Part shown: in pieces, positions 899 through 37,091 of the stretch
Layout of the letters: every line of letters begins with the position of its first letter
How positions within the stretch are numbered: position 1 is the stretch's first letter
Assembly (NCBI GenBank): GCA_016222825.1
Contig: JACRQF010000015.1
Span: 297,646-361,645 of the forward strand
Length of the DNA: 64,000 nt
From: Verrucomicrobiota bacterium
GTDB taxonomy: Bacteria; Verrucomicrobiota; Verrucomicrobiia; CAIQCK01
Reading direction: 5' to 3'
Notes under the pieces: generated by a model
The model's input: the letters and a program-made list of their open reading frames with translations, nothing else
Databases searched by the model: none
Told to the model about the DNA's origin: nothing
Translations under genes and position numbers: made by a program

Positions 899-2341
899 AT
901 GAACATGAACCGCCGATGCTTCTTGAAAACCACAGCCGCCGCGGCAGCCGGCTCGCGCTTGTTCTGCGCGCCGAGCATTTTCGCGGCCGGTTCGCCGAGT
1001 TCGAAGCTCGCTACCGCTGTGATCGGTTGTGGCGAACGCGGCGTGACCTTTCACGTTCCGGCCGCGACGGAAGAGCGGCTCGTTGCCCTCGCGGACACCG
1101 ACGACAAGCAATTCGCGGTCGTGACGCGGCCTCCGAAGTCGAAGCGGCCTGCTGGCGATGAGAAGAGAGTGGCAGGCGTTGATTTCTCCAAGGTGAAGAA
1201 GTTCACCGATTACCGGAGGATGTTCGACCAGATCGGCAAGGAGATTGACGCCGTGTTCATCGCGACGCCGAACCATCATCACGCGCCGGCGGCGCTGATG
1301 GCGATGCAACTCGGCAAGCACGTCTATTGCGAGAAGCCGCTCTGTCATGACATCTTCACAGCGCGCCGCATGGCGGAGTTCGCTGCGAAACACAAGGTCG
1401 CCACGCAGATGGGCAACCAGGGCCATTCGTGCGAAGGCGCGCGCCGCCTTTGCGAATACATCGCCGCGGGCGCCATTGGCAAGGTTACGGCGGTCTATGC
1501 GTGGAGCAACCGTGCCAACGGCAGCGTCGGCCCGCGTCCGCCGCAGGAACCGGTGCCGGCGGGCTTGCATTGGGACGAGTGGATCGGCCCCGCGCCGTAT
1601 CGCGATTATCACAAGGACCTCCATCCGCACGAATGGCACAACTGGCACGACTTCGGCAACGGCTCGCTTGGCAACATGGGTTGCCACATTCTGGACGGCG
1701 CGTTCTGGGCGCTGAAACTCGGCCACCCGACATCCGTCGAGGTGGAAGAAATGCTCGGCGGCAGCAAGGAGTGTTATCCGCTTGGCACGCGCATCCGCTG
1801 GGAGTTCCCCGCCCGCGACGAAATGCCGCCGCTGAAGGTCTATTGGTTCGACGGCAAGAAACGGAACGCGAAAGGCAGCGCCGCCGCCGACAACGACACC
1901 CCGGACAGCATCGGCAGCAGCGTCCAGAATCTCCCGCCGCTGGTCGAGGAACTGGAGAAGAAACACAAGATCAAGCTCGGCGGCAACGGCGCGCTTTACG
2001 TCGGCGACAAGGGTGTTTTGTGGAGCGACACCACCTGCGCCAGCGTTCGCATTATTCCCGAGAAGCAGCACAGGGCTACGCGTGTTCCTCCAGCCCGGAT
2101 CCCGCGCATCAAGGGCAGCCACGTGAGCGACTTCTACCGCGCCTGTCGCAGCGGCAAGCCCGCTTGCTCGAACTTCGAGTATGCCGCGCGGTTGACCGAG
2201 ATGATCCTGCTTGGCTCGCTGGCCTGCATTGCCGGTCCCGGCCGGAAGATCGAGTGGGACGGGCCGGGAATGAAATGCACCAACCTCTCGGAACTGGACC
2301 GCTGGGTGAAATGTCCCGTCCGCAAAGGCTGGGAAGTCTAG
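899..2341 (+). CDS. Gfo/Idh/MocA-family oxidoreductase with twin-arginine (TAT) signal
   Basis: ORF 875..2341; first ATG at 899 gives MNMNRRCFLKTTAAAAAG (RR-x-FLK TAT motif); NAD-binding GCGERG motif and typical Gfo/Idh/MocA core. Confidence 0.85.
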   Translation: MNMNRRCFLKTTAAAAAGSRLFCAPSIFAAGSPSSKLATAVIGCGERGVTFHVPAATEERLVALADTDDKQFAVVTRPPKSKRPAGDEKRVAGVDFSKVKKFTDYRRMFDQIGKEIDAVFIATPNHHHAPAALMAMQLGKHVYCEKPLCHDIFTARRMAEFAAKHKVATQMGNQGHSCEGARRLCEYIAAGAIGKVTAVYAWSNRANGSVGPRPPQEPVPAGLHWDEWIGPAPYRDYHKDLHPHEWHNWHDFGNGSLGNMGCHILDGAFWALKLGHPTSVEVEEMLGGSKECYPLGTRIRWEFPARDEMPPLKVYWFDGKKRNAKGSAAADNDTPDSIGSSVQNLPPLVEELEKKHKIKLGGNGALYVGDKGVLWSDTTCASVRIIPEKQHRATRVPPARIPRIKGSHVSDFYRACRSGKPACSNFEYAARLTEMILLGSLACIAGPGRKIEWDGPGMKCTNLSELDRWVKCPVRKGWEV

Positions 2342-2496
2342 CCAGCCTGCTGAATGAGTGTGCAAGGGACGGAAACCTGAAATCGAAGAGAAGTGATCCA
2401 GCAACGACAACCTTCAATGTATTTAGATTACGCTTGCCTCGGCCCGCGCGCGTGTTAGCGTGCGCGCTGTCGACAGCGAACTCGAAAGAACAACCG

Positions 2497-3876
2497 ATGA
2501 CGCAACTCACCTCCATGAAAACCATCATCACCTCCCTCATCGCATTGACCGTCACAATTCCGCTCCTGTCCGGCGCGGAGGCCAAAGACCCGTTCCTGCC
2601 GGCGAAGAAGCTCACCGCGCAGATGTATGACTCGAACTTCCGCGAGGGCCACGACACCTACAACGGCATGGGCACTGGCAGCGATGGTTGCATCTACTAC
2701 GTGCTCAGCACCGAGCCGCACGACCTCGGCGGCCGGATGTTCAAGTTCGACCCGAAAACCGGGAAGGTCACCTGCTGTGGCGACCTCACGGAAATCTGCG
2801 GCGAGAAGGACAAGAAGACCGTCGTGCAGGGCAAGAGCCACGTGAACTACGTCGAGGCCAACGGCAAGCTCTACTTCGCTACCCACATCGGCTACTACAG
2901 CATCGTGGACGGCATGGAGACGATGGGCATCCCGCCCGCCGGCTGGAGCAAGTATCCTGGCGGCCACCTGCTCTCCTACGACCTCAAGACCGGCAAGTTC
3001 GAGGACCTCGCCATCGCGCCCGGCGGCGAAGGCGTGCTCACGATGAGCATGGACACCAAACGCGGCCGCATCTTCTGCATGACGTGGCCGAAGGGCGAGT
3101 TCTTCCGCTTCGACCTCGCGACGAAGAACCTGAAGAACTTCGGCAAGCAGTGCGCCGAGGGCGAGAACGCCAAGGGCGAGAAATACCGCACCATCTGCCG
3201 CTCCATCGCGGTGGACCCGGAGGACGGCTCGGCGTATTTCAGCACCTCCGAGGGCACGATTCTCCAATACCGCGCCGGCACCGACGACGTCGTGAAGATC
3301 GAGGACGAGGACTTGAAGAAGGATTACTTCGGCCTCTACGAAGTCTCCAATCCCGGCCACATGGGCTACAACTGGCGGATGACCTTCTACCGGCCCAAAG
3401 ACAAGATGTTCTACGGCGTCCACGGCAATTCCGGCTACCTCTTCCGCTTCGACCCGCGCAAAAAGCGCATCCAAGTGCTCGACCGCATCACCTCCGACCC
3501 CTCCAAGGCCAGCGGCATGTTCGACCAGTTCAGCTACGGCTACCTTGGCTTCGCGCTCGGTCCCGACGGCGACACCATCTATTATCTAACGGGTGGCCCG
3601 ATCTACAAAGACGGCAAGCGCCTCAAGGGCAAGGACCGCATCGCGATGGGCGCGGCCAAGGGTCTCGAAGACCTCCACCTTGTCACCTACCACATCCCGA
3701 CCGGCCGCTGCAAAGACCAGGGTGCGATTTACTACAAGAACGGCGATCGTCCGCTCTACGTCAACTCCATCGCTGTCGGCAAGGATGGGAGCGTTTATTC
3801 GCTCGCCCGCGTGCCCGACAAGAGCCGCGTCCGCGCCGACCTCTTTTGCGTGAAGGGGCCGTTCAACGTAAAGTAG
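2497..3876 (+). CDS. secreted hypothetical protein, probable beta-propeller fold
   Basis: Long ORF 1429..3876; the upstream part is an Arg/Gly/Pro-rich high-GC artefact. ATG at 2497 begins MTQLTSMKTIITSLIALTVTIPLLSGAEA (signal peptide), followed by repeated blade-like segments. Confidence 0.65.
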   Translation: MTQLTSMKTIITSLIALTVTIPLLSGAEAKDPFLPAKKLTAQMYDSNFREGHDTYNGMGTGSDGCIYYVLSTEPHDLGGRMFKFDPKTGKVTCCGDLTEICGEKDKKTVVQGKSHVNYVEANGKLYFATHIGYYSIVDGMETMGIPPAGWSKYPGGHLLSYDLKTGKFEDLAIAPGGEGVLTMSMDTKRGRIFCMTWPKGEFFRFDLATKNLKNFGKQCAEGENAKGEKYRTICRSIAVDPEDGSAYFSTSEGTILQYRAGTDDVVKIEDEDLKKDYFGLYEVSNPGHMGYNWRMTFYRPKDKMFYGVHGNSGYLFRFDPRKKRIQVLDRITSDPSKASGMFDQFSYGYLGFALGPDGDTIYYLTGGPIYKDGKRLKGKDRIAMGAAKGLEDLHLVTYHIPTGRCKDQGAIYYKNGDRPLYVNSIAVGKDGSVYSLARVPDKSRVRADLFCVKGPFNVK

Positions 3877-3966
3877 TCATCACGTTCCGCGTGATGATTA
3901 TTGACCGGCTCTTCGGTGTTGTTTCCGCCGGCTCTCGCGCCTAGTATGCGCGACATCCGAGAAGCG

Positions 3967-4031
3967 TAGCCGCGTCACTCCGTGACGTGGTTGTGGATGG
4001 ACGACTCTCGCGTCGCGGAGTGACGCGGCTA
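3967..4031. other. long hairpin: perfect 16-bp inverted repeat (TAGCCGCGTCACTCCG / CGGAGTGACGCGGCTA) with ~33-nt spacer
   Basis: Read directly in the sequence between the stop of the 2497..3876 gene and the start of the 4052..5434 gene; no U-tract follows. Confidence 0.5.
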
Positions 4032-4051
4032 CTAAGAAAAACGGACGACTT

Positions 4052-5434
4052 ATGAAACGTTGCCTGCCGATCCTCCTGCTCGCTTGTTCCGCCGCCGTCG
4101 CCGCCGATTTCCAGGCCGGCGTCGCCAAGGTCAAGATCACGCCGCCGACGCCGTTCTGGATGTCGGGCTACTCCTCGCGCACGAACCAATCCGTCGGCGT
4201 CGTGCAAGACCTGTGGGCGAAGGCGCTGGCCGTGCGCGACCCGCAAGGCCACCGCGCTGTCATCGTCACGATGGACCTGATCGGCCTGCACAGTTCCGTC
4301 TCCGACGAGGTCTTCGCGCGGGCAAAAAAGCAGTTCAAGCTCAACCGCGCCGACGTGCTGCTGTGCTGTTCGCACACACACAGCGGGCCGGTCGTCGGGC
4401 TGAACCTGAACGTGATGTTCGACTTCAGTGCCGAGGACATGAAGCGGGTGCAGGCTTATACCGCTGATCTTGTGGACAAGCTGGTGAACGTCATCGGCGA
4501 TTCGCTGAAGGACCTGTCGCCCGCGCAACTCGCCAGCGGCCACGGCTCGGCTGGCTTCACCTCAAACCGCCGCAAGGTGCAACCCAAAGGCGTGACGATG
4601 GAGCCGAACGCCACCGGCCCGGTGGACCAGGACGTGCCGGTGCTCAAAGTGACCTCGCCGGACGGTAAGCTGCGTGCCATCTTCTTCGGCTACGCGTGCC
4701 ACAACACCACCATCAGCCCCCGCCCCGATCCCGAACTGGACTTCTACAAGATCTACGGCGACTACGCCGGCTTCGCGCAGTTGGCGGTCCAGAAGGCGCA
4801 TCCGGGTGCGGAGGCGATGTTCACGATCCTCTGCGGCGCCGACCAGAACCCGCAGCCTCGCGGCGCGCTCGATTACGCCCGGCAGCACGGCGAGGAACTC
4901 GCGGCGTCCGTGGAGAAGGTGCTGGGCGCCGAGATGAAGCCGCTCCGCGCGCCAATCCGCACGGCGTTCCAGGAGATCAAACTGGATTTCGCCAAGCACA
5001 CGCGCCAGACATTCGAGGACGAGATCAAGAAAGCCGAGGAGGCGAAGCGGCCCGATGGCAAGTTTCGCATCCGGCGCGCGAAGCAGATGCTGGCCGCCTA
5101 CGACAAAGGCCGCCCCATCCGCCAGACGCGCTACCCGGTGCAGGCGATCCGTTTCGGGAATGACTTCACCCTCATCGCGCTTGGCGGCGAAGTGGTGGTG
5201 GACTTCGCGTTGCGCAGCAAGCGCGAGTTTCCCAACGAGAACCTGATGGTGATCGGCTACGCCAACGACGTGATGTGCTACATCCCCTCGCTCCGCGTCC
5301 TGAAGGAAGGCGGCTACGAAGTGGACACAAGCATGGTCTATTACGGCCAGCCCGGGCTGTTCGCGGAGGACGTGGAGGAGAAGGTCTTTGAGGCCATCCA
5401 CCAAGTCATGGCGAAGGCCGGCGCAGGCAAGTAA
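4052..5434 (+). CDS. secreted hydrolase, neutral/alkaline ceramidase-like family (tentative)
   Basis: ORF with signal peptide MKRCLPILLLACSAAVAADF; motifs ITPPTPFWMSGY and CCSHTHSGP resemble the N-terminal domain of non-lysosomal ceramidases; family call from motif memory only. Confidence 0.65.
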   Translation: MKRCLPILLLACSAAVAADFQAGVAKVKITPPTPFWMSGYSSRTNQSVGVVQDLWAKALAVRDPQGHRAVIVTMDLIGLHSSVSDEVFARAKKQFKLNRADVLLCCSHTHSGPVVGLNLNVMFDFSAEDMKRVQAYTADLVDKLVNVIGDSLKDLSPAQLASGHGSAGFTSNRRKVQPKGVTMEPNATGPVDQDVPVLKVTSPDGKLRAIFFGYACHNTTISPRPDPELDFYKIYGDYAGFAQLAVQKAHPGAEAMFTILCGADQNPQPRGALDYARQHGEELAASVEKVLGAEMKPLRAPIRTAFQEIKLDFAKHTRQTFEDEIKKAEEAKRPDGKFRIRRAKQMLAAYDKGRPIRQTRYPVQAIRFGNDFTLIALGGEVVVDFALRSKREFPNENLMVIGYANDVMCYIPSLRVLKEGGYEVDTSMVYYGQPGLFAEDVEEKVFEAIHQVMAKAGAGK

Positions 5435-29897: not shown

Positions 29898-30385
29898 GTG
29901 CCGAGGCCCTCCACGCGGCACCTGAACACGGTCCAGAACAATCCGAGAAGCAGGCTAAGCACGAGGGAGAAGATGCCGATGGCGATGCCGGCGATGGCCA
30001 GCCCGCGTCCGCCTTCACCGCGCGTGTTGATCTGCGACAGCGAGATGGCGCCGAGGATAATCGCCGGGACGGAGAGGCAACCGCAGCAGTTCAACCCGAA
30101 GACCGCCAGCGACAGGCTCCAGACCGCGAGTGTGTTTGTGCGCGGCACTGCGAAGGAGAGCGGCGGGATGACGGCGGGCGGCAACGGGGCGATTCCGAGG
30201 GCTTGGGCCAGTTCAGGGATTTGCACGGCGGGCTGCCAGTTGCCGGTGCGCGAGTCCCACACCTTTGTCGGGGCGGCGACGCGGCGCTGGCGGATCCACT
30301 CTTGAAGCGTGGCGAGGTCCACCGGGCCGTATTCCTGACCGTCGCCGCCGATGATGCGGAAGGTAACTGGTGTCGCGTCTGTCAT
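29894..30385 (-). CDS. DUF4339 (GYF-like) domain membrane protein, tandem paralog 2
   Basis: 163-aa ORF: MTDATPVTFRIIGGDGQEYGPVDLATLQEWIRQRRVAAPTKVWDSRTGNWQPAVQIPEL then hydrophobic C-terminus. Confidence 0.7.
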   Translation of the reverse strand: MTDATPVTFRIIGGDGQEYGPVDLATLQEWIRQRRVAAPTKVWDSRTGNWQPAVQIPELAQALGIAPLPPAVIPPLSFAVPRTNTLAVWSLSLAVFGLNCCGCLSVPAIILGAISLSQINTRGEGGRGLAIAGIAIGIFSLVLSLLLGLFWTVFRCRVEGLGT

Positions 30386-30415
30386 GGTTTCTGGGATGGC
30401 TCGGCGCCAAGCACG

Positions 30416-31393
30416 TCAGGTTTGCTGACCGAAAATGTTCTCGTAAGCGACCATGAACATGCAGAAGCACATGGGCAGAGTGAAAACGATCCCGACAATG
30501 CAGGCAAGCAAGCCGAGCATGGTCAGCAGTCCCACCACGAGACCGTATGCGAAAATGGCAAACCAATGCCTGGCCACAACGCGACGGCTGGTTTCCATCG
30601 CCGCCCAGAACTGCATCCGCCGGTCCGCGACCAACGGCAACGCGAACGAATAGCAGACGCCGAGATACAGCACTGGCACCATGATCAGGCCCACGCCCAG
30701 CACCACCAACGAAACGCCCAACATATTGCGCGAGTCGGCCAGGAGCGCGCCGATGCCCACGACAACTCCACCAGGCAGAGCCGCGGCGAGGATCAGCACC
30801 GTCATGATGAGGTTCACCAGGATGGCTTGGGCGAAGAACAGATTGAAGCCATCGAAGATGTTGCCGAAACTCACGGTTTGTCCGCGCCGTCGCTGCAACA
30901 GCACATACCACACGCCGCCGATGAGCACCGGCTGGACAACGAGGTTGAAGGCCAGTTGCACCACGGCGCCAAAACAGGGAATCATCCCGATGGCGCTGAC
31001 ACCGAAGGACATGCCGAAAACGATCCAGCACGCGCCGAGCGCGAAACCCATATTGGCCTTGAAGAAGTTCCATCCCTGATTGAGCCAGTCGCCGAAGGCG
31101 ACCGTGTAATCGCGTTGCAGAATCTGACCCGCCAATTCTGCGCCCGGCGCGGGGCCGGTGGGAGCGACGCCGGGCGCGGCGGCTGGCGCGGGCGGCGGCG
31201 CGCTGAAGGCAGCGGCCAGTTCCGCAATCTGCGCGGCGGGCTGCCATTGGCCGGTGCGCGAATCCCACACCTGCGTCTGGCCGGCGACGCGGCCCTCGCG
31301 CGCCCATTGTTGGATGGTGGCGAGGTCAATGGGGCCGTATTCCTTGCCGTCGCCGCCGACGATCTTGAACGTGGGTGATGCTGGTGTGCTCAT
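30416..31393 (-). CDS. DUF4339 (GYF-like) domain fused to polytopic membrane domain, tandem paralog 1
   Basis: ORF 30416..31501; ATG at 31393 gives MSTPASPTFKIVGGDGKEYGPIDLATIQQWAREGRVAGQTQVWDSRTGQWQPAAQIAEL, Pro/Ala-rich linker, then ~6 TM helices. Confidence 0.7.
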   Translation of the reverse strand: MSTPASPTFKIVGGDGKEYGPIDLATIQQWAREGRVAGQTQVWDSRTGQWQPAAQIAELAAAFSAPPPAPAAAPGVAPTGPAPGAELAGQILQRDYTVAFGDWLNQGWNFFKANMGFALGACWIVFGMSFGVSAIGMIPCFGAVVQLAFNLVVQPVLIGGVWYVLLQRRRGQTVSFGNIFDGFNLFFAQAILVNLIMTVLILAAALPGGVVVGIGALLADSRNMLGVSLVVLGVGLIMVPVLYLGVCYSFALPLVADRRMQFWAAMETSRRVVARHWFAIFAYGLVVGLLTMLGLLACIVGIVFTLPMCFCMFMVAYENIFGQQT

Positions 31394-31522
31394 GTGGGAC
31401 TCCTTGGTTGATTGATGGCCGACTATCTCCGTCTGGACGCAACCATTACCAGAAAGCCGCCGCCGCGTCGAGGGGCGAAAAACCGCTTGCGTTCGCGGCA
31501 AGCGCGGCTAGACTGCTGCGCA

Positions 31523-31576
31523 AATGAACAAGATGACGCAGCATTGGTGGTGGCATAGATCGGGCCTCAAGCCCTG
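31523..31576 (+). CDS. candidate attenuator leader peptide (17 aa, MNKMTQHWWWHRSGLKP)
   Basis: Short ORF read directly from sequence (ATG AAC AAG ATG ACG CAG CAT TGG TGG TGG CAT AGA TCG GGC CTC AAG CCC TGA); three consecutive Trp codons flanked by His codons, immediately upstream of hisF-hisI-trpE-trpG. Confidence 0.55.
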
Positions 31577-31609
31577 ATCGCGCTATCCCTGCGCTGCGCT
31601 TGAGGACCC
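31562..31609 (+). promoter_or_regulatory. candidate antiterminator stem (GGGCCUCAAGC pairs with GCUUGAGGaCCC)
   Basis: 11-bp pairing with one bulge between 31562-31572 and 31598-31609; its 3' arm shares CCC (31607-31609) with the terminator 5' arm, so the two structures are mutually exclusive. Confidence 0.45.
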
Positions 31610-31642
31610 GGTGATTTGAGAAAGTCATCGGGTTTTTTATTT
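31607..31642 (+). terminator. intrinsic terminator-like hairpin plus U-tract (CCCGGUGAU…8-nt loop…GUCAUCGGG then UUUUUUAUUU)
   Basis: 9-bp stem (two G-U pairs) followed directly by T6AT3; ends 10 nt before the hisF ATG at 31652. Confidence 0.55.
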
Positions 31643-31651
31643 CAACGAATC

Positions 31652-32419
31652 ATGTTAGCCAAACGCATCATACCGTGCCTGGATGTCACCGGCGGTCGCG
31701 TGGTGAAGGGAACCAAGTTCCTGAACCTGCGCGACGCGGGCGACCCTGTGGAGTGCGCCCGCGAATACGACCGCCAGGGCGCCGACGAACTGGTGTTTCT
31801 CGACATCACCGCCAGCAGCGACGGGCGGCCGACGATGGTTGACGTGGTGCAGCGCACGGCCAGCGAGTGTTTCATGCCGCTCACGGTTGGCGGTGGCATC
31901 CGCACCGTCGAGGACATCCGCGCGATGCTCAAGGCCGGCGCGGACAAGACCTCGCTGAACACGGCGGCGGTGCAGAACCCCGACGTCGTGCGCGCGGGCG
32001 CGGAGCGGTTCGGCAGCCAATGCATCGTGGTGGCGGTGGACGCGCGGCGCGTGTCCGGCTCGTCGCCGCAACGATGGGAGGTCTATACGCACGGCGGGCG
32101 CAAGCCGACGGGCATTGACGCCATCGAGTGGGTGCGGCGCGTCGAGTCGCTCGGCGCGGGCGAGATTCTGCTGACCTCGATGGACGCCGACGGCACGAAG
32201 GCCGGCTACGACATTGAGTTGAACCGCGCGGTGAGCGAGGCGGTGCGCATCCCGGTGATCGCCAGCGGCGGCGCGGGCACGCTGGAGCACATGGCAGACG
32301 TGTTGCAGCGCGGCAAGGCCGATGCCGTGTTGGCGGCTTCCATTTTTCACTTTGGCGAGTATCAGGTGGCGGACGTGAAACGGTTTTTGCAGAGCAAAGG
32401 AATTTGTGTGCGACTCTGA
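31652..32419 (+). CDS. hisF: imidazole glycerol phosphate synthase, cyclase subunit HisF
   Basis: ORF 31616..32419; canonical HisF N-terminus begins at ATG 31652 ([23 protein letters not shown]…), full-length TIM barrel. Confidence 0.95.
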
Positions 32420-32431
32420 AAGGAAAACAAA

Positions 32432-32827
32432 ATGGCTGAACCGACATTCGACAAACTGAAGTTCGACTCCAACGGACTGATCCCGGCTGTCATCCAGGAG
32501 AGCGGCACGGGCCGCGTCTTGATGGTGGCCTACATGAACGCGGCGTCGCTGGCGAAAACGCTGGAAACCGGCAAGACGTGGTTCTGGAGCCGCTCGCGGC
32601 AAAAATACTGGCTCAAGGGCGAGTCCAGCGGCCATGTCCAGACCGTCAAGCGCGTGACGACGGATTGCGACTGCGACACGGTGCTCATCGAGGTCGAACA
32701 GGTCGGTGCGGCGTGCCACGAGGGTTTCAAGAGTTGCTTCTACCGCGAACTGCGCGCCGACGGCAACCTGAGTGAGCCGATCGAGCAGCGGTTGTTCGAC
32801 CCGGCGAAGGTGTATGGAAAGAAATGA
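32432..32827 (+). CDS. hisI: phosphoribosyl-AMP cyclohydrolase HisI
   Basis: 131-aa ORF with HisI motifs (…[26 protein letters not shown]…[20 protein letters not shown]…DCDCDTVL…). Confidence 0.9.
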
Positions 32828-32830
32828 GTC

Positions 32831-33391
32831 ATGAGCGAACTCTACGCACCGCCATTCGGACTGGCCTACTGGGCCGGCGTGGCGTTGCTGTTGTTCGCGC
32901 GCGGGCTGGATTTCCTCAGCACGTGGATCGCGACGCCGAGTTTGTTGCTGGAGGCGAACCCGATCGCGCGGCGGCTGGGCTGGCAAGGCGGAATTGCGGT
33001 GAACCTGCTCGTCTGCCTGGTGGCGGCGATGATTCCGTTTGTGGCTGTGCTGATCAGCGTGACGAGCGTGCTGGTGGCGGCGCGGAATTTCCAGGCGGCG
33101 TGGGTGTCGCGGACGATGGGCGAGTATGAGTTCCGCGAGCATCTGGAGGAGCAGTTTGGCCGCGCCGACAAGCGGCTGGTGCTCGGCTGTGTCTGGGCGC
33201 AAGGACTGCTCTACAGCGCGGTCGGCGTGGCGGTGGTGGCGCTGACGAACGACCTGATGGCGCAGGCGGTCGGCGGCGGCATCGTGGGTTTTGGCGTGGC
33301 GATAGCGGTCCATTCAATACATTATTACCGAAGAGCAAGACATGTATTATCCGACAAAGAGCGAGTTTCGCAGTTTAGCGAGCCGCGGTAA
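32831..33391 (+). CDS. hypothetical integral membrane protein (about 4 TM helices)
   Basis: ORF starts 4 nt after the hisI stop and overlaps trpE by 50 nt; strongly hydrophobic; no recognised family. Could be a frame artefact. Confidence 0.4.
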   Translation: MSELYAPPFGLAYWAGVALLLFARGLDFLSTWIATPSLLLEANPIARRLGWQGGIAVNLLVCLVAAMIPFVAVLISVTSVLVAARNFQAAWVSRTMGEYEFREHLEEQFGRADKRLVLGCVWAQGLLYSAVGVAVVALTNDLMAQAVGGGIVGFGVAIAVHSIHYYRRARHVLSDKERVSQFSEPR

Positions 33392-34826
33392 CCTCATTCC
33401 GGTTTACTGCGAGCTGCTGGCCGACCTGGAGACGCCGGTGTCGGCCTACCAGAAACTTCGCGGCAAAGGCCCGGCGTTCCTGTTCGAGTCCGTCGAGGGC
33501 GGCGAGCACATCGGCCGCTATTCGTTCATCGGCGCGGACCCCGGCATCACGCTCGTGCAGGACGGCGGCACCGTCCTCGTGCGCGAGGGCCGCAAGAGCA
33601 CGCGCGTCAAGTTCAAGCGCGACCCGTTGGAGGTCGTGGAGAAGGTGATGGCGCGCTACCGGCCGGTGGCGCTGCCGGAACTGCCAAGGTTCAGCGGCGG
33701 CGCGGTCGGATTCCTCGGCTATGAGTTCATCCACCACGTCGAGCCGGTCGTGCCGCGTCCGAAACAGGACGATCTTGGCGTGCCGCCGATGTATCTGATG
33801 CTGACGGACACCATCGTCATTTTCGATCGCGTCCGCCAGACCATCAAGGTCGTTTCCAACGCTCACGTCAGCGGCAACGCCGCCGCCGCCTACGACAAAG
33901 CCTGCCGCCGCATCGCCGCCATCATCGAACGGTTGCGGCGACCGCTGCCCGCCCGGCACGTCGAGTTCCAGCGCGAGGCGACGCCGCTGACGATGGAGAG
34001 CAACATGCCGGTCGAGCGTTACCAGACGATGGTGCGCAAGGCGAAGGAATACATCAAATCCGGCGACATCATCCAGGTCGTGCTCAGTCAGCGGTTCTCC
34101 GCGAAGGTGCGCTCCAAGCCGCTCGACGTTTACCGCGCGCTTCGCAGCGTCAATCCCTCCCCCTACATGTTCATCCTCGAACTCGGCGATTTCTCGCTCG
34201 TCGGCGCGTCGCCGGAGGTCCACGTGCGTTGCGAGGACGGCAACGTGGAGATTCGCCCCATCGCCGGCACGCGCAAACGCGGCAAGACGCCCGCCGAGGA
34301 CCTCGCGCTCGAAAAAGACCTGCTCGCTGACGAGAAGGAGCGTGCTGAGCACCTGATGCTCGTGGACCTCGCCCGCAACGATATTGGCCGCGTGTGCGAC
34401 TTCGGCAGCGTGAAGGTCGAGGAATTCATGGTCATCGAGCGTTACAGCCACGTGATGCACATCGTCAGCCAGGTCGAAGGCAAGCTCCAGAAGGAGCGCA
34501 CCGTCTATGACCTGATGCGCGCGACGTTCCCGGCAGGCACGGTCAGCGGCGCGCCGAAGATTCGCGCAATGCAGATCATCTCGCAACAGGAGGCGACGCA
34601 GCGCGGCCCCTACGCCGGCGCGGTCGGCTACTTCAGCTTCAACGGCAACCTCGACTGCTGCATCACTCTGCGCACCGCGTTGCTCAAGGGCGGCCGCGCA
34701 TACGTGCAGGCAGGCGGCGGCATCGTTGACGACAGCACGCCGGAAAACGAGTTTCAGGAAACGGTGAACAAGTCCATGGCATTGAGAAAGGCCATTGCGG
34801 TGGCGGAAGGTTTTGGAAAGACGTGA
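33342..34826 (+). CDS. trpE: anthranilate synthase component I TrpE
   Basis: 494-aa ORF; chorismate-binding enzyme signature and TrpE N-terminal region (MYYPTKSEFRSLASRGNLIPVYCELLADLETPVSAYQKL). Confidence 0.95.
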   Translation: MYYPTKSEFRSLASRGNLIPVYCELLADLETPVSAYQKLRGKGPAFLFESVEGGEHIGRYSFIGADPGITLVQDGGTVLVREGRKSTRVKFKRDPLEVVEKVMARYRPVALPELPRFSGGAVGFLGYEFIHHVEPVVPRPKQDDLGVPPMYLMLTDTIVIFDRVRQTIKVVSNAHVSGNAAAAYDKACRRIAAIIERLRRPLPARHVEFQREATPLTMESNMPVERYQTMVRKAKEYIKSGDIIQVVLSQRFSAKVRSKPLDVYRALRSVNPSPYMFILELGDFSLVGASPEVHVRCEDGNVEIRPIAGTRKRGKTPAEDLALEKDLLADEKERAEHLMLVDLARNDIGRVCDFGSVKVEEFMVIERYSHVMHIVSQVEGKLQKERTVYDLMRATFPAGTVSGAPKIRAMQIISQQEATQRGPYAGAVGYFSFNGNLDCCITLRTALLKGGRAYVQAGGGIVDDSTPENEFQETVNKSMALRKAIAVAEGFGKT

Positions 34827-34915
34827 TTCGTAACTCGTGATCCGTGATTCGAGCCGCGTCACCAATCACGAATCACGGATCACGAGTTACGAGTCACGCA
34901 TTACGGATTACGAAC
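34827..34915. repeat. array of 7-nt repeats (TYACGRR and its complement) forming a 24-bp perfect inverted repeat
   Basis: Read directly: arms at about 34828-34851 and 34868-34891, ~16-nt spacer; about seven consecutive 7-mers (aatcacg/aatcacg/gatcacg/agttacg/agtcacg/cattacg/gattacg) run to 1 nt before the trpG ATG. Confidence 0.75.
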
Positions 34916-35482
34916 ATGCTCCTAGTCATAGACAACTACGACAGCTTCACCTACAACCTCGTCCAATACCTGGGCGAGATGGGCGTGGAGATGAAGATCG
35001 TCCGCAACAACGAGGTCACTCTCGACGATGTGCGGGCGTTGAAACCGGCGCGAATCCTCATATCGCCCGGCCCGTGTTCGCCGGCACAGGCGGGCATTTC
35101 GGTGGAGGTCATCCGCCAGCTTGGACCGAAGATTCCGCTCTTCGGCGTCTGCCTTGGCCACCAGAGCATCGGCTACGCGTTCGGCGGCGAGGTCATCCGC
35201 AACTACCGGATGATGCACGGCAAGACCTCGCCGATCCACCACGACGGCCGGTTCCTCTTCCAAGGTCTGGCGAATCCTTTCGAGGCGACACGTTACCATT
35301 CGCTCGTCGTCAAGCGCGAGACGCTGCCGGATTGCCTGGAGATCACCGCCGAGACGCGCCCTGAAGGCGAGATCATGGGCCTGCGCCACAAACAATTCCC
35401 GATCTGGGGCGTGCAGTTCCACCCGGAGAGTGTGCTGACCACCGAAGGCAAGAAACTGCTGAAAAACTTCCTGACACTCTGA
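34916..35482 (+). CDS. trpG: anthranilate synthase component II (glutamine amidotransferase) TrpG
   Basis: ORF 34844..35482; canonical start at ATG 34916 ([19 protein letters not shown]…), class-I GATase catalytic Cys (GVCLGHQ) and His (QFHPES). Confidence 0.9.
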
Positions 35483-35575
35483 GGCCGCAGGCCGGGAACA
35501 TGGTGTCGGCGGGTTCCAGCGACGAGCGGGGGACGGTCTTGCAGTTTCGGTTGAGAAGCTGATTGTTCAACCGTT

Positions 35576-35601
35576 GTCCGAAGAATTTGTCCGAAGAATT
35601 T
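35576..35601. repeat. perfect 13-bp tandem duplication (GTCCGAAGAATTT x2)
   Basis: Read directly in the trpG to oxidoreductase intergenic region. Confidence 0.6.
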
Positions 35602-35726
35602 CCCTTTTCGTCGTGAATGACTGGCGGTAGTATCCGTCCGCCGTTTGCTTTTGAGAAGTCACCATGACATCGAGCAACCAATACTCCTTGCCGCAGTCGC
35701 GGACCGAAACCAACCCCTCACTCACC

Positions 35727-37091
35727 ATGAAGACTGAATCATCCTCCAAACCTACGCCTCAACCCACGCGCCGCGAATTCCTCCAGTGGAGCGGCAAAGC
35801 CGTCGCCGCGTCTGCTCTTGCAGGCGTCGCGCTGCCCCAAGTCCACGCCGCAGGCACCAACGCCATCAAGCTCGCCCTCATCGGCTGCGGTGGCCGCGGC
35901 AGCGGCGCCGTCGTCAACGCCCTCGAATCCGCCAATGGCCCCGCCAAGCTCGTCGTCATGGCCGACCTCTTCGAGGACCGGCTCAAGCGCTCCCACAAGG
36001 CCCTCCACGACAAGTTCGGCGACAGTGTGGATGTGCCGGAGGACCGCCGCTTCGTCGGCTTCGACGCTTACAAGAAGGCGATTGATTCGCTGCGGCCGGG
36101 CGACGTAGCGATGCTGACCGGCTATGCCGGCTTCCGGCCGGGCCAGTTGGAATACGCCGTCGAGAAGGGCGTGAACGTCTTCATGGAGAAATCGTTTGCC
36201 GCCGATCCGCCGGGATGCCGTCGCGTCATCGCGGCGGGCGAGGCGGCGGAGAAGAAGGGGCTGAAGATCGCCGCGGGTCTCCAGTGCCGGCATTCGCGCA
36301 ACCGGCAGGAACTCATCCGCCGCATCCGCGATGGCGAGATGGGGCAGATCATGCTCATCCGCGCCTACCGTTGCGAGGGAAGCGGCTGGTTGAAGCCGCG
36401 CCCACCGGAGATCAAAGACCTGCACTATCAAATCCGCAACTTCACGAAGTTCCTGTGGGTTTCGGGCGGACTGTGGGCGGAGATGGACATCCACCAGATT
36501 GACGAGATCTGCTGGCTTAAAGGCGAGTATCCGGTGAGTGCGCACGGCATCGGCGGCCGGGTCGCGAACAGCAAGGATTGCAGCCAGAACCTCGACTCGT
36601 TCTCGGTGGAATGGACGTTCGCCGACGGGACGAAGGCCTACGACGTGGTGCGCTACATCCCGAAGTGCCTCTACCAGTTCGACACCTACGTCCACGGCAC
36701 CAAGTGCGCGGCGCAGTTCTCCGGGCCGATCCACGCGGGCATTGTGCATACCTACAAGGACCAGCGTTGCGCGCCGGACAACATCGCGTGGGAGGCGGAG
36801 AAGGAGCCGATCACGCCGTGGCAGGCGGAGTGGGACGCGTTGTTCGACGCGATTCGGAACAACAAGCCGCACAACGAGGCAAAGCGCGCGGCGATGAGCA
36901 ACCTGGCGGACATCATGGGCCGCGCGGCGGTTCACATGGGCCGGGTGATCACGTGGGAGGAAGCGATGAAGTCCGACTTCAAGTTCTGCCCGAACATTGA
37001 CAACCTCACCGACGACAGCGAGCCGCCGATCAAGGCCGATGCCAACGGCTGCTACCCCGTGCCGATCCCGGGACAGTGGACGGAAATCTAG
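35727..37091 (+). CDS. Gfo/Idh/MocA-family oxidoreductase with TAT signal (paralog 1 of second tandem pair)
   Basis: ORF 35664..37091; TAT motif TRREFLQWSG, GCGGRGSG motif. Start at ATG 35727 chosen (alternative ATG 35664). Confidence 0.85.
   Translation: MKTESSSKPTPQPTRREFLQWSGKAVAASALAGVALPQVHAAGTNAIKLALIGCGGRGSGAVVNALESANGPAKLVVMADLFEDRLKRSHKALHDKFGDSVDVPEDRRFVGFDAYKKAIDSLRPGDVAMLTGYAGFRPGQLEYAVEKGVNVFMEKSFAADPPGCRRVIAAGEAAEKKGLKIAAGLQCRHSRNRQELIRRIRDGEMGQIMLIRAYRCEGSGWLKPRPPEIKDLHYQIRNFTKFLWVSGGLWAEMDIHQIDEICWLKGEYPVSAHGIGGRVANSKDCSQNLDSFSVEWTFADGTKAYDVVRYIPKCLYQFDTYVHGTKCAAQFSGPIHAGIVHTYKDQRCAPDNIAWEAEKEPITPWQAEWDALFDAIRNNKPHNEAKRAAMSNLADIMGRAAVHMGRVITWEEAMKSDFKFCPNIDNLTDDSEPPIKADANGCYPVPIPGQWTEI

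Follow-up and report, generated by a model that had tools for sequence, protein, structure and literature searches.

The locus considered here raises the question of how a bacterial operon that mixes histidine and tryptophan biosynthesis genes, hisF-hisI-ORF186-trpE-trpG, might be controlled from the short region in front of its first gene. The window, i.e. the whole stretch of DNA that was analyzed, comprises 64,000 nucleotides (nt) of a contig from an uncultured Verrucomicrobiota bacterium, and directly upstream of hisF it carries a small open reading frame (ORF) with clustered Trp and His codons, followed by a terminator. We consider it very probable that a ribosome-mediated (leader-peptide) transcription attenuator controls these five genes, and the element would most likely turn on the combined his/trp operon under a shortage of those amino acids. 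What was directly observed or computed are the elements in the sequence, the way they fold, and their conservation and co-variation in relatives.

The ORF, three alternative helices and the terminator are found in the classical order, with the terminator U-tract ending 9 nt before hisF. The initial annotation had proposed the layout of a classical trp/his-type attenuator, and this proposal is now backed by the anatomy of the region, by folding, by conservation in relatives and by a second clade. The elements are the following (bp, base pairs):

31524..31577, + strand: leader ORF of 17 codons plus TGA, encoding the peptide MNKMTQHWWWHRSGLKP (ATG at 31524, TGA at 31575-31577)
31538..31597, + strand: leader hairpin (anti-antiterminator, analogue of the "1:2" hairpin), obtained in the minimum free energy (MFE) fold of the window sequence and in the RNAalifold consensus
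31559..31612, + strand: antiterminator helix of 14 bp, 31559-31572 with 31598-31612, A31606 bulged; 31606-31612 are common to the terminator 5' arm
31606..31642, + strand: intrinsic terminator, 12-bp stem 31606-31617/31622-31633, GAGA loop, U-tract 31633-31642

The leader codons read, in order, ATG AAC AAG ATG ACG CAG CAT TGG TGG TGG CAT AGA TCG GGC CTC AAG CCC TGA, so that the presumed regulatory codons are one His codon (31542-44), the three Trp codons WWW (31545-53) and a second His codon (31554-56). A 17-codon leader with three consecutive Trp codons flanked by two His codons, as described in the initial annotation, is thus found in the sequence, although the ORF had been placed one base off, at 31523..31576. 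The site is singular within the window: the 15-mer CATTGGTGGTGGCAT occurs once when up to 2 mismatches are allowed (0.09 occurrences expected), a covariance model built on the element returns a single copy, and when both window strands were scanned for small ORFs with WW that precede a hairpin and a T-run, the leader site was the sole match. The window contains 584 ATG-started small ORFs of 6-35 codons, with WW in 11 of them and WWW in 3; two of these three are the leader ORF itself, read from its two nested ATGs. A WW-containing small ORF is by itself unremarkable, and what is remarkable is its combination with position and conservation.

The HisF sequence assigns the window to the Verrucomicrobiota, and the best species-representative genomes (GTDB) are only 81-82% identical in this protein; closer relatives were taken from a metagenome scan and from exact-protein look-ups. 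The element was present directly upstream of hisF in every relative for which upstream DNA was available and HisF was at least 89% identical. In this way a window clade of 8 distinct sequences was delimited (HisF 89-100% identical, the seven others 89-97%), whose other leader peptides are:

L083: MNKTTQHWWWHGSGLKP
L169: MNKTTQHWRWHGSGLKP (six further contigs are identical)
L162: MNKATQHWWRHGSGLKP
L082: MNTTAQYQWWHGSGLKP
L176: MNKTAQHGSWHRSGLKP
L164: MTTTHHWWHGPGLWP (also in NCBI assembly GCA_017973835.1)
L168: MTTTLHWWWHGSGFNP

Leader ORF, terminator and antiterminator are kept in all seven, which is the outcome of the comparison of hisF upstream regions that had been suggested as a check. The initial annotation had named a lack of the ORF or stems in close relatives as a refuting result, and the comparison thus spoke in favour of the attenuator. 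The enrichment in Trp and His codons (3 and 2, respectively, in the window leader) is kept in 10 distinct leaders when the second clade described below is included, with 1-3 Trp codons and 1-2 His codons among the related leaders. A further locus, L152, has a terminator immediately before hisF, and its contig ends 94 nt upstream.

The alignment of the eight window-clade sequences (A3) was used for an analysis of insertions and deletions. Within the leader ORF these measure 6 nt (L164) and 3 nt (L168), whereas 3' of the leader stop codon they measure 1, 2 and 4 nt. The N-terminal leader residues vary freely, and the second His is kept in all eight sequences through a synonymous change of its codon from CAT to CAC in L176 and L168. 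The frame-preserving indels and the conserved Trp and His codons argue for translation of the leader ORF. The sequence GSGLKP at the C-terminus of the leader is also conserved in this clade; because it coincides with the antiterminator arm, its conservation may act at the RNA level.

The RNA from 31515 to 31655 folds with an energy of -55.9 kcal/mol (z = -4.35 relative to dinucleotide shuffles), and the structure prediction proposed in the initial annotation returned the leader hairpin, the antiterminator and the terminator as alternative folds with their energies. The terminator stem is formed by the arms ACCCGGUGAUUU-GAGA-AAGUCAUCGGGU (31606-31633), followed by UUUUUUAUUU to 31642; its hairpin energy is -16.9 kcal/mol, the U-tract after the stem reads TTTTTTATTT (31633-42), and the hisF ATG (31652) lies 9 nt further downstream. 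The terminator had first been drawn as 31607-31615 paired with 31624-31632, at 10 nt from hisF; its presence holds, with the stem limits and the distance as given here. Its pairing is kept in 97.9% of cells across the 8 sequences, with a compensatory pair that is U-A in 3 sequences and C-G in 4. The generic promoter/terminator scan of the window did not flag a terminator upstream of hisF.

The antiterminator pairing put forward in the initial annotation, GGGCCTCAAGC (31562-72) with GCTTGAGGaCCC (31598-609), is likewise present, but the helix is three pairs longer (C31561-G31610; U31560-G31611, which is U-A in relatives; A31559-U31612), so that its overlap with the 12-nt terminator 5' arm amounts to 7 nt and not 3. 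The shorter, 11-bp version was rejected, since it overlaps the terminator by only 3-4 nt and coexists with an intact terminator in MFE folds; in these models only the extended helix is truly exclusive with the terminator. The leader sequence AUCGGG (31559-64) is a copy of AUCGGG in the terminator 3' arm (31627-32), which is a signature of an antiterminator. Antiterminator pairing is kept in 92% of cells across the 8 sequences. In the leader hairpin, the outer stem joins the His/Trp codon region to 31582-31597, 3' of the stop codon, and the inner hairpin (31558-31579) is GAUCGGGC-CUCAA-GCCC-U-GAUC, whose pairing amounts to 98.4% across the 8 sequences with one C-G to G-C compensation. Because the antiterminator 5' arm is used in this hairpin, we regard the latter as an anti-antiterminator. 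Each of the three structures, terminator, antiterminator and leader hairpin, shows 1-2 compensatory pairs.

The two antiterminator arms were also compared as separate strands. The arm-to-arm duplex energy is -19 to -26 kcal/mol as against about -10 to -18 kcal/mol for shuffled arms, and shuffled 3' arms reach the observed energy at p <= 0.006 in 8 of 9 sequences. The arms have changed jointly, from CAAGC/GCUUG in the window to GGCC/GGCC in L164 and GGGG/CCCC in L168. When every 5' arm was combined with every 3' arm, the cognate pair was the best in its row for L164 (-23.4 as compared to -16.0 to -22.8) and for L105, a member of the second clade (-26.1 as compared to -9.8 to -16.7). For L168 the cognate pair was marginal: at -19.3 it is 0.4 kcal/mol better than the best non-cognate one in the row (-18.9), and it is not the best in its column. 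This suggests that the antiterminator arms co-evolve in the divergent members L164 and L105.

The second, distant clade consists of L105 and L181 (NCBI GCA_964582645.1), whose HisF proteins are 91% identical to each other; that of L105 is 68% identical to the window protein. Their leaders are MCSAHWWK in L105 (VMCSAHWWK when read from a GTG) and MICRMHWWK in L181. Both loci keep the A-tract, a CTTGCC-N-TACACT motif, and H-W-W-K followed by the stop codon, and both have the order of anti-antiterminator, antiterminator and terminator with U-run seen in the window clade. Here the anti-antiterminator pairs GAAGU(G/A)ACGG with CCGUUGCUUC and covers the stop codon, and the antiterminator pairs (C)GGGGCUGCC(C/U) with (G/A)GGCAGCCCU(G) and overlaps the CCCUG of the terminator arm; one of its pairs is changed on both sides between L105 and L181, from C-G to U-A, in a compensatory manner. 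The stems have no sequence in common with those of the window clade. The window-clade covariance model gave a weak full-length match to L105 (19.6 bits, E about 0.008), and L105 was handled as a separate instance because it cannot be reliably aligned with the window clade. An identical design built from different stem sequences argues for function.

In addition to the leader itself, a conserved upstream region was identified:

31478..31482, + strand: A-tract resembling an UP element (GAAAAACCGCTTGC), present in every relative, L105 and L181 of the distant clade among them
31487..31514, + strand: promoter-like motif, TTGCGT (31487-92), 16-nt spacer, TAGACT (31509-14)

This possible promoter, already pointed out in the initial annotation, was not flagged by a generic sigma-70 scan; it is conserved in relatives, CTTGC(G/C) and TA(G/A/C)ACT being invariant in an alignment of 9 sequences (A2). 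The A-tract, which may act as an UP element, CTTGC(G/C), the 16-nt spacer and TA(G/A/C)ACT are common to all ten distinct sequences. The distance from the end of the -10 hexamer to the start codon is 8-9 nt in the window clade (ATG) and 6 nt in the L105/L181 clade (GTG/ATG), and no Shine-Dalgarno-like sequence was found upstream of the leader ORF. From this fixed spacing and the lack of a Shine-Dalgarno sequence, translation of the leader is probably leaderless or near-leaderless, with a putative 5' untranslated region of about 0-3 nt. A 7-bp inverted repeat, CGCTTGC-N7-GCAAGCG (31484-31504), lies over the promoter spacer as initially noted, but its conservation among relatives is inconsistent: only the window, L162 and (in a shifted position) L176 have it whole or almost whole, and it is degraded in L083, L082, L164 and L168. 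For this reason it is probably not an operator. In the generic scan the same repeat was flagged as a terminator-like site of the minus strand, a hairpin with GTTTTTCG behind it; this candidate was rejected, given that nothing on the minus strand needs terminating and that the repeat is degraded in the four relatives just named.

In the scheme proposed below, the points that are inferred are where transcription starts, that the ORF is translated, how the stalled ribosome is positioned, and that the switch responds to Trp and, above all, to His. Transcription would start at TTGCGT-N16-TAGACT, about 0-3 nt from the leader AUG. When Trp-tRNA (probably also His-tRNA) is plentiful, the ribosome would reach the UGA at 31575-77 and cover 31562 to about 31587; alternatively, the leader hairpin 31538-31597 would re-form after ribosome release. 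By either route the antiterminator 5' arm 31559-31572 would be unavailable, the terminator 31606-31633 would form, and RNA polymerase would stop in the U-tract before hisF. When the charged tRNA is scarce, the ribosome would stall with His-7, Trp-8 or Trp-9 in the A site and its 3' edge at about 31554-31560, thereby melting the lower leader hairpin and leaving 31559-31572 free to pair with 31598-31612 once these are transcribed. The antiterminator would thus sequester ACCCGGU, the base of the terminator stem, ahead of the synthesis of the terminator 3' arm, and the polymerase would read through into hisF and on to trpG. The geometry was computed with an assumed distance of 10 nt from the A-site codon to the 3' edge of the ribosome, which places this edge as follows:

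A-site codon His-7, edge at 31554; Trp-8, 31557; Trp-9, 31560
A-site codon Trp-10, edge at 31563; His-11, 31566; stop codon, 31587

With this footprint, the antiterminator arm (from 31559) stays free during stalls at His-7, Trp-8 and largely Trp-9, loses 4-8 nt to a ribosome stalled at Trp-10 or His-11, and is entirely covered by one at the stop codon. When a ribosome is placed at the first Trp codon and the terminator 3' arm is still lacking, the exposed RNA has the extended antiterminator as its MFE structure in 7 of 8 sequences (-27 to -30 kcal/mol). When no ribosome is included, the window, L169 and L162 fold into the leader hairpin with a free terminator arm, whereas the MFE favours the antiterminator in the remaining sequences, in which the order of co-transcriptional folding would therefore decide.

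It is important to mention that several observations weigh against attenuation. All support for the attenuator is computational. The formal covariation statistics, computed on just eight close sequences, are weak, and the antiterminator score was reached by 94 of 500 shuffles. The third Trp codon and the second His codon would be poorly placed, as stalls there mask part of the antiterminator arm, and two independent TGG to CGG changes have occurred, L176 retaining a single Trp (HGSWH). Once the whole terminator is present and the ribosome sits at the first Trp codon, the terminator conformer is 2-4 kcal/mol more stable in five sequences (full helix forced) and is favoured by 4.8-13.6 kcal/mol in L176, L164 and L082 (partial helix forced). 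Because of this greater stability, read-through must rely on kinetic trapping of the antiterminator; in E. coli trp the terminator is likewise more stable than the antiterminator and control is kinetic. Finally, a clade with HisF 80-87% identical (L001, L002, L084-L091, L177, L179 and L180) has the order hisF-hisI-trpE and no leader before either hisF or trpE.

The hisI-trpE gaps of loci that lack a leader at hisF did not contain one either, and the GTDB species representatives L001, L002 and L043, with hisF-hisI-trpE order, have no leader. Taken as a refutation of the attenuator, the result for these three representatives was overturned by the closer metagenomic relatives. The gene order hisF-hisI-(ORF)-trpE(-trpG) itself is found repeatedly among Verrucomicrobial lineages whose HisF is 66-97% identical to that of the window, in some cases together with the attenuator and in others not (loci L001, L002, L043, L084-L091, L105, L141, L152, L177 and L179-L183). 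A search of 1.3 Mb of related loci with the window-clade covariance model R1 revealed no additional copy; the match in L106 covered the terminator only and was rejected, and P0001 was set aside as an unrelated HisF context.

A separate question is whether the leader responds to Trp alone or to His as well. Sensing of Trp stands on firmer ground than that of His, yet is not rigid. That the leader senses His as well as Trp is suggested by the codon pattern with chances close to, though not quite, even, and we advance only tentatively the fuller proposal of a bivalent leaderless attenuator, in which the His codon before the Trp codons would let a leader of 8-17 codons sense both charged tRNAs. 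Of the 10 distinct leaders of both clades, 9 have a His codon directly before the Trp run, the exception being L082 (YQWWH); in the L105/L181 clade nothing else of the leader peptide is shared besides His and the Trp run. Under the assumed footprint, no codon would be better placed than His-7 to cause a productive stall, two His codons precede the Trp run in L164 (HHWWH), and the first two genes of the operon, hisF and hisI, are his genes. A single well-placed His codon is, on the other side, a weak sensor, E. coli hisL having 7 His codons, and the second His codon is badly placed and absent from the L105/L181 clade.

These last points lead to the best surviving alternative, a Trp-only attenuator with the same mechanism, in which the flanking His codons would be passengers kept by descent or by a constraint at the RNA level; conservation of CAU could reflect either. 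We regard this version, which lies within the confidence placed in attenuation as a whole, as possible but somewhat doubtful. It would account for a second His codon (31554-56) that by the footprint estimate is too close to the antiterminator arm, for the loss of the first His in L082 and for the lack of the second in L105/L181, as well as for the weak sensing expected from one His codon. It also agrees with attenuators found elsewhere only on trpE, the first enzyme of the pathway, such as that of Sinorhizobium meliloti trpE(G) (PMC6614838). It leaves unexplained why the His 5' of the Trp run is kept in nine leaders, including those of a clade with an otherwise unconserved peptide, why the second His is kept in all window-clade sequences through two synonymous changes, why L164 has an extra His, and why his genes are the first two under control.

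Outside attenuation, the region could be an independent small-RNA gene, or a dual-function small RNA with a small peptide, i.e. a unit of about 115 nt acting in trans while hisF has its own promoter. The promoter-to-terminator unit is indeed compact and conserved, and the attenuator-derived rnTrpL RNA and peTrpL peptide of Sinorhizobium can act in trans (PMC6614838, PMC7298713). In the window, L083, L162, L164, L169 and L181, however, the hisF ATG lies only 9 nt beyond the U-tract, too short a distance for a separate hisF promoter, and a small RNA would not explain the Trp/His codons, the placement of the stop codon or the antiterminator that overlaps the terminator. We therefore consider this reading improbable, although a trans role in addition to attenuation could exist.

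Still less probable is a terminator controlled by a protein or a ligand (TRAP-like, T-box or riboswitch) next to a fortuitous small ORF. Terminator/antiterminator alternatives are also the read-out of such systems, but no relevant Rfam family was found for 31480-31651 at E <= 10; T-box and riboswitch models gave no match, and at about 115 nt the leader is too short for a T-box. A reading of 31515-31640 revealed no (G/U)AG repeat series of the TRAP type (9-11 triplets spaced by 2-3 nt over the antiterminator), and the frame-preserving indels and conserved Trp/His codons point to translation. The Rfam cmscan of 30000-36000 at E <= 10 detected neither Trp_leader (RF00513) nor His_leader (RF00514), and the only match within the element coordinates, a 15-bit one to anti-hemB, was discarded as chance; the element is thus analogous to the two leader families and not a member of them. 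A chance juxtaposition of a small ORF and an ordinary terminator or hairpin, to which the not very rare WW-containing small ORFs of the window (11/584) lend some weight, is hardly credible and effectively refuted by the comparative data, the element being present in ten distinct sequences of two clades, always upstream of hisF-hisI-trpE, and only once in the window.

The genes that the attenuator would control, and the neighbour upstream of it, are:

30416-31393, - strand: upstream neighbour gene, divergent
31652..32419, + strand: hisF, imidazole glycerol phosphate synthase cyclase subunit (TIGR00735, 391.6 bits, cut-off 294.55)
32432..32827, + strand: hisI, phosphoribosyl-AMP cyclohydrolase (NF000768, 174 bits, cut-off 126)
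32831..33391, + strand: ORF186, hydrophobic ORF of 186 amino acids (aa), family unknown, overlapping trpE by 50 nt
33342..34826, + strand: trpE, anthranilate synthase component I (TIGR00564, 590.6 bits, cut-off 517.7)
34916..35482, + strand: trpG, anthranilate/aminodeoxychorismate synthase component II (TIGR00566, 256 bits, cut-off 121; start 34916 read from the sequence)

The mixed his-trp operon described in the initial annotation (hisF, hisI, trpE and trpG) stands, its four genes being closely packed and above the curated NCBIfam cut-offs. The successive spacings from hisF to trpG are 12, 3, -50 and 89 nt, which makes a single transcription unit plausible. ORF186, absent from the initial annotation, fills the apparent hisI-trpE gap; it had no Pfam or NCBIfam match, is kept at the same position in L082, L083, L164 and L169, has counterparts with 44-45% identity in L043 and L141, and appears to be an uncharacterised membrane protein co-transcribed with the His/Trp biosynthesis genes. 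The usual partner of hisF, hisH, lies outside the operon, and the glutamine amidotransferase gene trpG lies inside it; a Pfam survey of 30 of the larger ORFs of the window revealed no further his or trp gene. Because the upstream gene is divergent, the terminator between the promoter and hisF serves no other gene. The neighbours of the operon encode a sulfatase, a heparinase-like protein and GFO/IDH/MocA oxidoreductases.

Some further features of the operon and the window were recorded. hisF has no Shine-Dalgarno-like sequence, its ATG being preceded by the U-tract and CAACGAATC (31643-31651), and hisI has an upstream AGGA; hisF may rely for its translation on the unstructured, A/U-rich stretch that remains after read-through. 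A hairpin of heptamer repeats (GGAGTGA/TGGAGTG/TTGGAGT...) lies between the terminator and hisF in three relatives (L082:3924-4000, L176:492-563 and L105:3783-4000) and is absent from the window, L083, L162, L164, L169 and L181. In L164 (3253-3922; also in L165 and L166) two small genes are inserted between hisF and hisI, one of 64 aa and one of 161 aa with weak DUF6036/DUF2204 nucleotidyltransferase-like matches, which may form a toxin-antitoxin-like module. The trpE-trpG gap of the window (34822-34898) is filled by a 30-bp near-perfect hairpin of tandem CGTGATT-type heptamers without a U-tract, which gave spurious microRNA matches in Rfam; the hairpins at this position in relatives are built from other heptamers (GGTGACT/GGTAACT in L083 and L082, CGTGATT in L169), and they may represent an intra-operon element for RNA stability or processing or a mobile REP-like repeat. 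Elsewhere in the window, a long intergenic inverted repeat (3966-4032; 22-nt arms, 95% complementary, GTGACG/CGTCAC core) sits between ORFs 1429-3876 and 4052-5434.

According to Naville and Gautheret (2010), the leader-peptide systems known at that time came essentially from Proteobacteria and Actinobacteria, to which these authors added a new Firmicutes case (PMC2965389). The initial annotation knew of no such element in this lineage, and our literature search on attenuation and leader peptides in Verrucomicrobia likewise found no description of one. Later Russian comparative work reportedly extended the list to some other phyla. A search for leader peptides with both His and Trp codons returned none in titles or abstracts, and we know of no His+Trp leader. 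The mechanism is textbook, and what is new, as far as the literature searched shows, is the attenuator family and the phylum; bivalent His/Trp sensing and leaderless translation are putative variant features.

The element would extend classical leader-peptide attenuation to the Verrucomicrobiota, and our understanding of the attenuation mechanism itself is unchanged by it. If the bivalent reading is true, one leader would co-regulate the mid-pathway His enzymes HisF and HisI with the first Trp enzyme, TrpE/G, and this would be, within the literature searched, the first leader-peptide attenuator family described in Verrucomicrobiota. The element also suggests that these bacteria couple the regulation of some steps of His and Trp synthesis, two pathways that draw on phosphoribosyl pyrophosphate and glutamine. 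The leader would also be a natural example of how few regulatory codons suffice (1-3 Trp, 1-2 His), and the compact conserved module of promoter, leader and terminator could aid regulatory annotation in uncultured Verrucomicrobia.

Among known systems, the E. coli/enterobacterial trpL (RF00513) shares with the element a short leader ORF whose tandem Trp codons lie 3-7 codons ahead of the stop, the order of leader hairpin, antiterminator and terminator, a more stable terminator under kinetic control, and the governed genes trpE and trpG. Unlike trpL, the present element has no Rfam sequence/structure match and no Shine-Dalgarno sequence and is probably leaderless, His codons flank its Trp run, hisF and hisI are the first controlled genes, and the host belongs to the Verrucomicrobiota. 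Multivalent leaders occur in E. coli at thr (Thr and Ile) and ilvGMEDA (Ile, Leu and Val), where, as in our element, codons for more than one amino acid stand in one leader and match the operon products. Those leaders contain many codons of each kind, as against 1-2 His and 1-3 Trp codons here, and in our case the two amino acids come from different pathways joined in one operon and the sensing of His is putative. Leaderless leader peptides are known as well: mycobacteria are said to have attenuators with polycysteine leaderless small ORFs. In Deinococcus deserti, 14 leaderless leader peptides were predicted, including that of trpEGD with a transcription start at -1 (PMC4007540). Common to these systems and to ours is an ORF that starts at or next to the (here presumed) transcription start without a Shine-Dalgarno sequence and whose regulatory codons match the downstream pathway; whereas the start was mapped in those bacteria, here it is deduced from the fixed spacing of 6-9 nt between the -10 element and the start codon. 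Finally, S. meliloti has a trpE(G) attenuator with trpL, rnTrpL and peTrpL (PMC6614838, PMC7298713), and two likenesses are apparent: among dispersed trp genes, the Trp leader-peptide attenuator is found only on the anthranilate synthase genes, and the terminated leader RNA is a discrete small transcript, as would be produced by the Verrucomicrobial element.

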